A DNA stretch of 64,000 nucleotides from Somniosus microcephalus. Lineage: Eukaryota. This document shows, one piece after another, positions 40,630 to 53,245 of this stretch (positions are counted from its first letter, which is position 1; every line of letters starts with the position of its first letter). Under the pieces are notes generated by a model. That model was given only the letters and a program-made list of their open reading frames with translations. It had not been told where the DNA came from and did no database searches. A program made the position numbers and the translations under genes. The stretch is from positions 96,658,001-96,722,000 of the forward strand of contig CM126208.1 in NCBI GenBank assembly GCA_052327205.1. Direction: 5' to 3'.

Positions 40630-41821
40630 ATAGATGGTAAAATAGATAAGGGAGAACCAGCGGATGTGGTGTATTTGGACTTTCAGAAGGCTTTCGATAA
40701 GGTCCCACATAAAAGATTAGCGTGTAAAGTTAAGGCACATGGGATTGGGGGCAAGGTATTGACTTGGATAGAGAACTGGTTGGCAGGCAGAAAGCAAAGA
40801 GTTGGAATAAACGGGTCTTTTTCCGAGTGGCAGGCAGTGACTAGTGGAGTACCGCAGGGATCGGTCCTTGGACCCCAGCTATTCACAATATATATTAATG
40901 ATCTAGACAAGGAAACTAGATGTAATATCCCCAAGTTTGCAGACGACACAAAGCTGGGTGGGCGTGTGTGCTGTGAGGAGGATGCCGAGAAACTCCAGTA
41001 TGATTTGGACAGGTTGGGTGATTGGGCAGAAGCATGGCAGATGCAATATAACGTGGATAAATGTGAGGTTATCCACTTTGATGGCAAAAACAGAAAAGCA
41101 ATTATTATCTGAATGGCAATAGATTGGGAGAAGGGGAAGACCTGGGTGTCCTTGTGCACCAGTCGCTGAAGGTAAGCATGCAGGTGGTTAAGAAGGCAAA
41201 TGGTATGTTGGCCTTCGTAGCGAGAGGGTTTGAGTACAGGAACAAGGATGTCTTGCTGCAGTTGTACAGGGCCTTGGTGAGACCACACCTTGAGTATTGT
41301 GTGCAGTTTTGGTCGCCTTATCTGAGGAAGGATGTTCTTGCCATGGAAGGAGTTCAGCGAAGATTCACCAGGCTGATACCTGGGATGGCAGGAATGACGT
41401 ATGAGGAGAGATTGGGTCGATTGGGCTTATACTCGCTGGAGTTTAGAAGAATGAGAGGGGATCTCATTGAAACTTATAAAATTCTGACAGGACTGGACAG
41501 ACTAGATGCAGGAAGGATGTTCCCGATGGTCGGGGAGTCCAGAACCAGGGGTCACAGTCTAAGGATAAGGGGTAAGCCATTTAGGACAGAAATGAGGAGG
41601 AATTTCTTCACCCAGAGAGTGGTGAACCTGTGGAATTCTCTACCACAGAAGGCAGTAGAGGCCAATTCATTAAATATATTCAAGAAGGAGTTGGATATAT
41701 TTCTTAAGGCTAAAGGGTTCAAGGGGTATGGGGAGAAAGCAGGGACCGGGTACTGAATTTGAATGATCAGCCATGATCACATTGAATGGCTTACTCCTGC
41801 TCCTATCTTCTATGTTTCTAT
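40630..41821 (+). mobile_element. CR1 LINE ORF2 (RT), frameshifted, with 3' UTR
   Basis: YLDFQKAFDKVPH...SGVPQGSVLGP...KFADDTK...LEYCVQFWSP. Confidence 0.95.
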
Positions 41822-42656: not shown

Positions 42657-43679
42657 CTGGTGCTGTCTGTGGCCGGTCCACTGGTGCTGTCTGTGGCTGG
42701 TATACTGCTGCTGTCTGTGGCCAGTATATTGGTGCTGGCTGTGGCCAGTTCACTGGTGCTGGCTGTGGCCGGTATACTGACGCTGTCCGTGGCCGGTATA
42801 CTGACGCTGTCCGTGGCCGGTATACTGACGCTGTCCGTGGCCGGTATACTGACGCTGTCCGTGGCCGGTATACTGACGCTGTCCGTGGCCGGTATACTGA
42901 CGCTGTCCGTGGCCGGTATACTGACGCTGTCCGTGGCCGGTATACTGACGCTGTCCGTGGCCGGTATACTGACGCTGTCCGTGGCCGGTATACTGACGCT
43001 GGCCGTGGCCGGTATACTGACGCTGGCCGTGGCCGGTATACTGACGCTGTCCGTGGCCGGTATACTGACGCTGTCTGTGGCCGGTATACTGGTGCTGTCT
43101 GAGACCGGTATACTGGTGCGGTCTGTGGCCGGTATACCTGACACTGTCTGTGGCTAGTATACTGACGCTGTCTACGGCCGGTATACTGATGCTGTCTATG
43201 GCTGGTATACTAGTGCTGTCTATGGCTGGTATACTGGTGCTGTCTGTGGCTGGTATACTGACGCTGTCTGTGGCTGGTATACTGACGCTGTCTATGGCCG
43301 GTATACTGGTGCTGTCTATGGCTGGTATACTAGTGCTGTCTATGGCCGGTATACTGGTGCTGTCTATGGCTGGTATACTGGTGCTGTCTGTGGCTGGTAT
43401 ACTGACGCTGTCTGTGGCTGGTATACTGACGCTGTCTATGGCCGGTATACTGGTGCTGTCTATGGCTGGTATACTAGTGCTGTCTATGGCCGGTATACTG
43501 ATGCTGTCTATGGCTGGTATACTGACACTGTCTATGGCTGGTATACTGACACTGTCTATGGCTGGTATACTGGTGCTGTCTGAGGCTGGTATACTGACAC
43601 TGTCTGAGGCTGGTATACTGACACTGTCTATGGCTGGTATACTGTTGCTGTCTATGGCTGCTTTACTGACACTGTCTAG
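42657..43679. repeat. 24-bp minisatellite, about 42 units (GGTATACTGACGCTGTCYRTGGCY)
   Basis: Seen directly; begins a few bp inside CHMP4C intron 1; one 25-bp unit near 43137. Confidence 0.97.
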
Positions 43680-43687
43680 GCTCCTAC

Positions 43688-43889
43688 CTCTCTTGTTCTT
43701 GGTGCCGCTTCTCCGGGCGGTCTCCAGCTCTCTCTCGATCCTATTCTCCAGGTATTCCTGTTTCTTGGTCAACATCTCCTCGGTCTCCCGGAGACGATGG
43801 AGGGCTTCCTGCGGGCTCGGACCCTGTTTCCTGGAGCGGGACGAGTCCGAGCTCGGGCCGCCCTTGAAGAAGTTTGCAACTTTACTCAT
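43688..43889 (-). CDS. CHMP4C: CHMP4C (ESCRT-III, Snf7 family) coding exon 1
   Basis: MSKVANFFKGGPSSDSSRSRKQGPSPQEALHRLRETEEMLTKKQEYLENRIERELETARRSGTKNKR matches the CHMP4 N-terminus. Donor G|GTAGGA at 43687, phase 1. Assigned to 4C by head-to-head synteny with ZFAND1 and 4C-like residues. Confidence 0.93.
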
Positions 43890-44026: not shown

Positions 44027-44081
44027 ATGGCGGAGCTGGGGCTCGGGCAGCGGTGCGAAGTGCAGCAGTGCCGACAGCTCG
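44027..44081 (+). CDS. ZFAND1: ZFAND1 (AN1-type zinc finger protein 1) coding exon 1
   Basis: MAELGLGQRCEVQQCRQL resembles vertebrate ZFAND1 MAELDIGQHCQVEHCRQR. Donor G|gtaaga. Confidence 0.92.
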
Positions 44082-44194
44082 GTAAGAAGCTGGGAGGGAC
44101 AGCTCGGTAAGAAGCTGGGAGGGGCAGCTGCAGTCACTCTCGGGCCTTCGTAAACATTTTACTGTGTCGTGTAAACCGCGACGGGAATATCGAG

Positions 44195-44520
44195 TTGTAT
44201 AAAATTATGAGGGGCCTGGATAGGAAGCAACTATTTCCCCCTAGCAGTGAGGTCAATAACTAGGGGGCATAGATTTAATGTAATTGGTAGAAGGATTAGA
44301 GGGGAGTTGAGGAGAACATTTTTTGTACCCAGAGGGTGGTGGGGGTCTGGAACGTACTGTCTGCATTTAAAAAGTACTTGGATATACACTTGAATTATTA
44401 ATCTACAAGGCTACGGACCAAGAGTTGGAAAGTGGGGTTTGGTTGGATAGCTCTTTTTTGGCCCGCACAGACACGATGGGCTGCATGACCTCCTGTGCCG
44501 TAAATTTCTGTGATTCTATT
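44195..44520 (+). mobile_element. CR1 3' fragment
   Basis: tataaaattatgaggggcctggatagg...acccagagggtggtggggg...tttctgtgattct. Confidence 0.8.
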
Positions 44521-46816: not shown

Positions 46817-46859
46817 ATTTTCTACCATTTGTTTGTGATGGCTGTTCAGGAACTTACTG
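46817..46859 (+). CDS. ZFAND1: ZFAND1 exon 2 (43 nt)
   Basis: ctttcag|AT ... TG|gtacag; encodes DFLPFVCDGCSGTYC (AN1 finger 1). Confidence 0.93.
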
Positions 46860-46997: not shown

Positions 46998-47037
46998 CCT
47001 TGAACATAGAAGTAAAGATGCTCATGGTTGTTCTGGG
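46998..47037 (+). CDS. ZFAND1: ZFAND1 exon 3 (40 nt)
   Basis: tttctttag|C ... GGG|gtgagt; encodes LEHRSKDAHGCSG. Confidence 0.92.
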
Positions 47038-48329: not shown

Positions 48330-48457
48330 GTATGTTTAAGAAAAGAACCAGTGAAATCTGAAGGGCCTTCATCTTACAACTGTACATACAGAAGCTGTAA
48401 GGCAAAAGAACTCTTGCCAGTAATTTGCTCGCACTGTGAGAAACACTTTTGTCTGGG
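48330..48457 (+). CDS. ZFAND1: ZFAND1 exon 4 (128 nt)
   Basis: tttcag|GTA ... GG|gtgagt; encodes VCLRKEPVKSEGPSSYNCTYRSCKAKELLPVICSHCEKHFCLG (AN1 finger 2). Confidence 0.92.
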
Positions 48458-48543
48458 GTGAGTATTTGTGTAAGCTGAGTTCTGATACTGGTATTGGTTA
48501 AGATTTGCACTTCAGTATGTTGATGTTTCTGTTTCTGTTTCAG

Positions 48544-48635
48544 GCATCGACACCAGTCAGATCACGACTGTGAAAAGCAGGAGGTGCCGAAATCACGTTT
48601 GGTTATCTCTCAGCAAGTACTTAAAGAGACTGTTG
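48544..48635 (+). CDS. ZFAND1: ZFAND1 exon 5 (92 nt, GC donor)
   Basis: tgtttcag|G; encodes HRHQSDHDCEKQEVPKSRLVISQQVLKETV. The only phase-compatible donor I found is G|gcaagt. Confidence 0.88.
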
Positions 48636-49270
48636 GCAAGTACTGTATTACCTTTCATAAACAGCATAACCTTTCTATTGATTGTGGCCTGGCTATGAGT
48701 AAATTAATCTTTAGAGTCTAAACAAATGCACAAAAAGCATACGTCAGCTTAGTTAAAACTAAAAATACAATAACAAATTGTACATTCCTAGTTGTAGTAG
48801 AACAGGAAATTATTAGAATTTTGTGGATATTGTTTTCGTATGTGCTGATCCCTGGTCTAAGGGTGAGGCCAGACACACCCTTTTTGTTCAGGCCTTTTTC
48901 TAAAGCAACTGTAATTAGCTACTGGTAGGTTTATGACATAAGTGCAGTTTAACACTTTCCTACCATTTTGGAGGAACACTTCATCTGTCCTGGCTGCAAT
49001 CCTTAATTCACTGCATGGATAGTTGAGGATAATCTTTCATGTAATACTCAGCAGCACAAAACATCAACACCTGCATAGCCTATTTGGTGGTTCTTTTTGC
49101 AGTTATTATTAAATTGCACAGTATGGACATGATATATTTGTTGCAGGGATAGGTGACAATATCTTACTGGTTTTGAATGGGCAGGAAAATTATTAACTCA
49201 GCCATCATTGCTGTTGCCTTTTGTCTGTCTTGAATTAAACTTTTTTTAAATCAGAAAAACTATTTAAAGC

Positions 49271-49375
49271 GTTTCCTACATTACAACAGTACAAAAAGTA
49301 CTTCATTGGCTGTAAAGCACTTTGGGACATCCGGTGGTCGTGAAAGGCACTATATAAATACAAGTCTTTCTTTCA
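49271..49375 (+). mobile_element. Deu-type SINE 3' fragment at or within ZFAND1 exon 6
   Basis: Same tail as 20800-20910; flanked by AAAGC on both sides. Confidence 0.8.
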
Positions 49376-49379
49376 AAAG

Positions 49380-49498
49380 CCACTAATGCAGTCCCACTGA
49401 AGAAAGGAAGAAAAGGAGCAAAGAACAATGCAACTGCTGCAAAAGTGGCACTTATGAAGTTGAAGCTACATGCTGTTGGAGACAAGTCCATACCACAG
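49380..49498 (+). CDS. ZFAND1: ZFAND1 exon 6 (acceptor uncertain: 49380, alternatively 49392)
   Basis: Encodes ATNAVPLKKGRKGAKNNATAAKVALMKLKLHAVGDKSIPQ, donor |gttaat. The acceptor follows a SINE tail: tctttctttcaaaag|CC. Confidence 0.85.
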
Positions 49499-50164
49499 GT
49501 TAATGTCAGTCTATTTAAGGTGAAATCTTCATTGAAGTTTCCCTGACGGGGATAGTGCATATTGTGATAAGTTTCCTATTTTTTAAAATGATGTCTCTAG
49601 GCTGATTTTTAGTCTCTCTCATGCCCTCGAAACATGTGCAGACAGAGTGTAAAAATAGGCAGAGATCAGTCCCAGTAGGTCTCTGACCATTCTGTATGCT
49701 GATTGCATTCTTGTGTGGGTTGGGCAGGTAGCAGAAGTTCCTGCCAAAAATAGGTGTGAGTTTCATAATATTTAAATGAGCAGGGAAGTGGTATCATTTA
49801 GATGTTGTGATTTAGCATAGTTTACAACATGAGTACACTTGTTTCTCCTCATGCCCATATAACTTCATCATCCAAGACATACCATTTGTGTGTCAAAGCA
49901 TTTCAAGGGGCAACAGGTGCATTCTGAATGTTATTTTATTAACCCGTTATTCAAAATAAATTTCTATTACAATTCTCTGCTGTATATGAAAGGAGTTTGT
50001 AGGAGGGATTTTGATGACTCTGGTTTTGAACAATTCCTGAACCGTTGGATAGCTGTCCATGTAGGAATTCACCTTTATTTGACTTACTTGGAGAAAGAGG
50101 AAGAATGCTAGGATTGTAAGCAATACCATGCACAGATGCACCCTTGTGCTCCCAACTGAGTATA

Positions 50165-53089: not shown

Positions 53090-53245
53090 AATGAGCGAGT
53101 ATATTTTCAAGTTTATTTGCCAAAAGGGAACAAAGAGAAAAGCAGATCGATGTTCTTCTGTTCCAAATGGAGTATTGGAAAAATGGTGGATAATGCAGCT
53201 TCACTGTTGAACCTTAGGAATGACAACAATATTTTGGCATCTAAG
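53090..53245 (+). CDS. ZFAND1: ZFAND1 exon 7 (156 nt)
   Basis: tttgcag|AAT ... AAG|gtaata; encodes NERVYFQVYLPKGNKEKSRSMFFCSKWSIGKMVDNAASLLNLRNDNNILASK (ubiquitin-like domain). Confidence 0.95.

Follow-up and report, generated by a model that had tools for sequence, protein, structure and literature searches.

A truncated SINE at the end of ZFAND1 intron 5 in a shark, and the exon 6 splice acceptor beside it

The window analyzed here, a 64-kb stretch (G000:C7:96658001-96722000) of the 6.45-Gb genome of the source shark, carries the gene ZFAND1 with a SINE in front of its conserved exon 6. This arrangement raises the question of whether the element landed within the exon and imposed a new splice acceptor, as a first-pass annotation had proposed, or lies in the intron beside an acceptor that has kept its place. 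Our data make it very probable that a truncated SINE occupies the last bases of intron 5, that exon 6 is spliced at its ancestral start at 49380 to give a normal protein of 267 aa, and that the SINE tail likely serves as branch zone and as most of the pyrimidine tract.

Gene model and acceptor in use

Eight coding exons were mapped. The AN1 zinc fingers, the UBL_ZFAND1 domain and the high identity to named orthologues identify the gene as a ZFAND1 orthologue. Exon 7 matches AN1-type zinc finger protein 1 of named sharks and rays, best that of the sawshark (100% over 52 aa), and its translation also matches PF25327 (UBL_ZFAND1 domain).

44027..44081, + strand: ZFAND1 exon 1, coding portion starting at the ATG, with a GT donor; the frame of the joined exons matches shark orthologues
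46817..46859, + strand: ZFAND1 exon 2
46998..47037, + strand: ZFAND1 exon 3
48330..48457, + strand: ZFAND1 exon 4, matched by an X14 contig piece
48544..48635, + strand: ZFAND1 exon 5, ending in phase 1, with a GC donor next
48636..49379, + strand: intron 5, 744 nt, GC-AG type; a 744-nt skip at the joint in X14, X1 and X2
49380..49498, + strand: ZFAND1 exon 6, 119 nt, ancestral boundaries, from the joint and the orthologues
53090..53245, + strand: ZFAND1 exon 7, from orthologue matches and PF25327
54974..55144, + strand: ZFAND1 exon 8, coding portion up to the stop, from orthologue alignment

Four sets of contigs (X14, X1, X2, X9) were aligned to positions 48500-49600. They gave a single joint, from 48634/5 to 49379/80 with one shared letter, that is 48635 to 49380, which was present in X14 (58 letters on its short side), X1 and X2. 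X9 contained both exon pieces, the second from 49379, without a listed joint, and X15 showed no spliced piece among the matches listed. X14 comes from the SINE-carrying organism E and from the same sample as DNA runs containing 0.99 of the window's words; it is not on record as RNA, and its contigs are spliced. Its pieces of exons 4-5-6 show zero differences from the window and are correctly spliced. Thus, the SINE carrier splices normally. The joints in X1 and X2 are those of two relatives, A and B, which presumably lack the SINE and likewise join exon 5 to 49380. Organism F contains 0.96 of the window's words, which suggests that it shares the insertion. Positions 49129-49239 were without contig cover in the four runs, so these contigs cannot show an empty-site allele.

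The first-pass annotation had named 49255, 49380 and 49392 as the junctions to look for, and only that to 49380 was seen. No joint to 49255, 49270, 49365 or 49392 occurred in any of the four contig sets, which drop rare variants. The poison isoform that had been proposed was therefore unseen at this depth, and a minor NMD isoform may exist.

The same acceptor is indicated by the orthologues. The comparison covered 8 shark and ray cluster representatives with all 46 members (22 named species and 7 Logan proteins), mostly annotation-pipeline models that are consistent across sharks and rays. The five extra residues predicted by an acceptor at 49255 were present in 0/46 of these proteins. Spacing was identical to the 49380 form in 39; exon 6 was longer by two internal residues in six, all of carpet sharks, and one was missed by the motif. 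The frame obtained through 49380 encodes 267 aa, of which 252/267 (94%) are identical in the sawshark protein with zero gap columns, and it is also gap-free against the sevengill, sawfish, skate and stingray proteins. Position 49380 is thus both the acceptor in use and the ancestral start of exon 6, and at the protein level the relatives already splice there. The loss of 4 or 8 aa claimed earlier becomes 5 and 9 aa when counted against the modelled 272-aa protein, and zero at 49380 against real orthologues. Because this splice gives a gap-free protein of 267 aa, no residues were lost and the allele is not null.

We graded acceptors by their pyrimidine count at -15..-5. Among five candidate AGs, 49380 was the best (10/11), followed by 49255 (8/11) and by 49270, 49365 and 49392 (5/11 each). 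The other ZFAND1 acceptors range from 5/11 to 11/11, on par with 49380, and the exon 4 acceptor is functional with 5/11. An acceptor at 49365, which would give the exon length of the first-pass model, was rejected on its 5/11 pyrimidines and the lack of a joint.

The GC donor of intron 5 (48636-48637) is borne out by the contig joint. Several bird ZFAND1 models read through the equivalent spot and gain residues, and this donor may be old and a trap for annotation.

The SINE copy and its family

The insert lies at the very end of intron 5, 5 nt from exon 6, and exon 6 itself carries no insertion. The family match spans 106 nt in front of the exon, where a SINE tail of 105 bp had been noticed before; it was the placing of the SINE within exon 6 that failed, the orthologues starting at the equivalent of 49380. 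The elements at this junction are as follows.

49241..49254, + strand: T-run with an AG, resembling an acceptor but with no use seen; exon 6 did not ancestrally begin here
49266..49270, + strand: the upstream one of the two AAAGC, which may stem from target-site duplication or from microhomology
49269..49374, + strand: 5'-truncated 3' end of the SINE, sense to ZFAND1, consensus positions 353-467 of 467
49365..49374, + strand: TCTTTC-type SINE tail, at -15 to -6 relative to the acceptor in use (10/11 pyrimidines at -15..-5)
49375..49379, + strand: AAAAG with the working AG at its end, from the contig joint and SINE copy comparison

The copy differs from the family consensus by 4 substitutions and one 9-nt deletion (~96% identity), and its match reaches 49374, or -6 of the working acceptor. 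The pyrimidine tract at the end of the intron reads TCTTTCTTTC. The five letters AAAAG that follow the tail are likely host sequence, since 0/55 other family copies show them after the tail; this count uses copies not picked with the window flank, the 4/29 copies with AAAAG in one sampling having been query-selected. We also considered the intact tail as a signal of selection and rejected it: at ~4% divergence, 15 unchanged letters are about an even chance.

In each genome search with the SINE, 40/40 scored candidates matched; the first of these searches had 1467 first-look candidates. The insert is a dispersed, multicopy, short non-coding element with a simple-repeat 3' tail and frequent 5' truncation, and its identity as a SINE is beyond chance. 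The family consensus, built from 29 loci, is 467 nt long. Most other copies extend 5' into the SINE body, where the window copy stops; three other 3'-complete copies lie in the 64-kb window. The head of the consensus gave a weak Rfam tRNA match in the one copy tested (23.3 bits, E 0.02, under the gathering score of 29), and ARAGORN found 0 tRNA genes in 9 SINE loci. We take the family to resemble the Deu-domain elements (SacSINE1 / DeuSINE). Self-matches apart, copies reach at best 92-95% identity to one another, so that the family and the window copy are probably not very young.

Compared by description only, the family fits SacSINE1 in size and anatomy (~467 nt here, up to 463 bp in SacSINE1, and a possible tRNA-like head), which we use as a candidate name. 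The published account of SacSINE1 gives a shark SINE with a tRNA head, a Deu domain and an L2-related tail, the 3' end being common to an L2 LINE (PMC5499810). According to the same account, copies in whale shark and skate average ~74-75% to the SacSINE1 consensus, against ~96% to the family consensus for the window copy; these two species are therefore likely without the window insertion (PMC5499810).

Two side observations concern other loci of the family. At L028 (1425-1962), a copy is directly abutted by a second, more decayed 3' fragment, possibly a SINE re-primed on its own tail. At L020 and L021 (G000:C215 and C38), two contigs, one small and one large, share an identical copy together with its flanks, which likely reflects a haplotig or a recent duplication.

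History of the junction

The SINE fills position -6 and upstream of the 49380 acceptor, and it is thus the likely source of the branch zone and of much of the pyrimidine tract. The usual distance of a branch point from its acceptor is ~20-50 nt (PMC7349775); this interval lies inside the SINE, so the predicted branch point is likely SINE-derived. The branch A would sit in the TATATAAAT box of the element, at about -22 to -26, and the SINE's own AG at 49363-49364 would be too near to it to be chosen. We hypothesize that an L2-type enzyme primed the TCTTTC tail of the SINE on a host pyrimidine tract through short microhomology. In ZfL2-2, a member of the L2 clade, 3' microhomology is described for ~80% of copies (PMC2666801); the putative link of our family to L2 is taken from PMC5499810 and from resemblance. 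Such an event would have displaced the old branch zone ~110 nt upstream while leaving a new tract of the same kind in place, and since like replaced like, the insertion would have been nearly neutral and would have persisted. Priming on the tract leaves room for the old branch point downstream of the AG at 49254.

A sub-case of this explanation, which differs in history, is an acceptor duplication of the merle type. The SINE would have entered where the intron meets the exon and duplicated 5 bp of target site spanning AG|C. Of the two AGs, the downstream one would then have taken over with a wholly SINE-made tract, and the upstream one (to 49270) would be a left-over poison acceptor yielding a minor NMD isoform. 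We regard this as possible, at somewhat less than an even chance. The AAAGC reported on both sides of the SINE is there (49266-49270 and 49376-49380); it borders the insert precisely on either side and includes the AG. Across the family, short junction repeats are commoner than expected: in a tight search, repeats of at least 5 bp were found in 7/60 copies against 5.2% of 3540 shuffled pairs, which superseded a looser first search that returned chance-level matches only. On these counts alone, before other evidence, AAAGC has about an even chance of being a true duplication, and it is a doubtful one, as its last two letters (2 of 5) also match the family consensus. The merle SINE is reported to have produced the same outcome with a 15-bp duplication (PMC7349775). 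Against this history, the empty site as modelled counts 5/11 pyrimidines, and 15 nt upstream of it stands a better in-frame AG that no orthologue uses; the scenario therefore needs one more mutation. Nevertheless, the exon 4 acceptor is equally poor and works, so this objection is not strong. In silico, a splice through the upstream AAAGC enters the SINE and stops at 49341 after 143 aa, and no joint to 49270 appeared in the four runs.

For the junction as a whole, we give about half of our belief to tract-primed insertion, a good minority share to the 5-bp duplication across the AG and a small remainder to other histories, the present state being the same for all of them. Of the acceptor replacement first proposed, the match of the SINE tail to the 49380 tract therefore stands, and replacement in the form of an AG duplication is possible, but no exon start has moved.

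An insertion into the exon itself is very improbable. Here exon 6 would have begun at 49255, the SINE would have landed inside it, and a new acceptor would have rescued the gene at the cost of some residues, leaving a poison isoform. Several of the sequence features advanced for it are correct: the AG at 49253-49254 stands behind a T-run, with a fair tract and an AG-free zone of 53 nt; removal of the SINE and one AAAGC (110 nt) leaves an open exon of 134 nt and a protein of 272 aa; a splice to 49255 with the SINE present runs into the TGA at 49341 (148 aa); and 49380 and 49392 are both in frame (267 aa and 263 aa). However, an upstream AG falls in frame by chance in one case out of three, none of the 46 orthologues has the extension, and the relatives join to 49380, so that 49255 is not an old acceptor. 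The scenario would also need a lineage-specific extension of the exon that the SINE then exactly undid. A null or strongly hypomorphic allele is just as improbable: the absence of exon 4-5 reads in the raw RNA runs X16 and X17, of the same species label, is uninformative (repeat-swamped runs, each sampled to roughly 1/4 to 1/3), and it faces the correctly spliced X14 contig, the open 267-aa frame close to that of the sawshark, and a single gene copy, the search of G000 for a second copy, haplotig or retrocopy with exon 6 and with its upstream flank returning one match each, the window itself.

Other copies and known systems

A second copy of the family directly ahead of an exon was found in a targeted, not blind, examination of 5 of the 7 internal ING-family matches in G000.

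G000:C10:4478218-4481421 (L095), - strand: ING1-like last exon, from near locus position 1703, with the SINE directly ahead

At this locus the element is in sense and ends ~14 nt before the exon, whose best structure match is the ING1 PHD finger. A tandem expansion of ~33 bp within the SINE there divides it in two. In a blind survey of 88 distinct copies, 42 of them with an AG soon after the tail, a Pfam exon after the tail was found in 0/35 open frames of at least 22 aa, a sample too small to address enrichment. A genome holds on the order of 200,000 acceptors, and by a rough estimate, based on the three other 3'-complete copies in the 64-kb window, some tens of them should be abutted by a SINE by chance; the two cases of ZFAND1 and ING1 therefore do not show enrichment. 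It is conceivable, if rather unlikely, that the shark SINE acts as a self-neutralizing splice-site mutagen, whose sense TCTTTC tail would prime inside pyrimidine tracts and restore the acceptor it enters. Were this so, many constitutive shark acceptors, with ZFAND1 and ING1 as two of them, would carry a SINE-made branch point and tract, well in excess of chance and with a preference for the sense orientation, contrary to Alu. Enrichment throughout the genome would also reveal how a retroposon can take over the core splicing signals of constitutive exons with the protein unchanged, and why the TE-rich genomes of sharks put up with this family close to exons.

The closest known system is canine merle, where SINEC_Cf lies at the boundary of PMEL intron 10 and exon 11 (PMC7349775); the ZFAND1 SINE probably works as the merle SINE does when benign. 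As described there, that SINE, too, lies where an intron meets an exon, the original acceptor draws its polypyrimidine tract from the SINE tail, and a normal product is possible; it is antisense, however, with a poly-T derived from poly-A, a 15-bp duplication, polymorphism and a cryptic acceptor that comes into use as the tail lengthens. In ZFAND1, by contrast, the SINE is in sense and its tail is itself a microsatellite of pyrimidines; a duplication is open to doubt there, and aberrant splicing was not observed. Alu exonization, as summarized in PMC7349775, is another case where TE sequence supplies splice signals, as at ZFAND1, but in the ZFAND1 joint observed the SINE sequence is absent from the mRNA. 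Mammalian data show that TEs are depleted near splice acceptors, in so-called U-zones, and that truncated elements prevail among those tolerated close to exons (PMC3088655). The ZFAND1 SINE is truncated as well; unlike the U-zone norm, it persists 5 nt from the exon, in what is the most depleted zone in mammals. As matters stand, the insertion is harmless although it lies in a zone that is normally cleared of insertions, and its presence or absence may serve as a marker in shark phylogeny. Subscription papers being outside our scope, we found no shark case in the literature and nothing relevant on ZFAND1 in sharks.

The upstream end of the gene showed further features. A 25-bp tandem duplication across the exon 1 donor (44073-44129) means that the donor GTAAGA occurs twice in identical form, at 44082 and at 44107; use of the latter would shift the frame to a stop at 33 aa. 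A CHMP4-like first exon (43692-43889, - strand), with CHMP4B as its top structure match, lies head to head with ZFAND1, the two ATGs being 138 nt apart; ZFAND1 and CHMP4C are neighbours in other vertebrates. Just downstream of this exon is a 24-bp tandem array (42662-43677, 42.3 copies, 90% matches). Also, LINE-like 3' fragments, which we take by resemblance to be of CR1 type, occur at 40630-41820 and 44190-44510.
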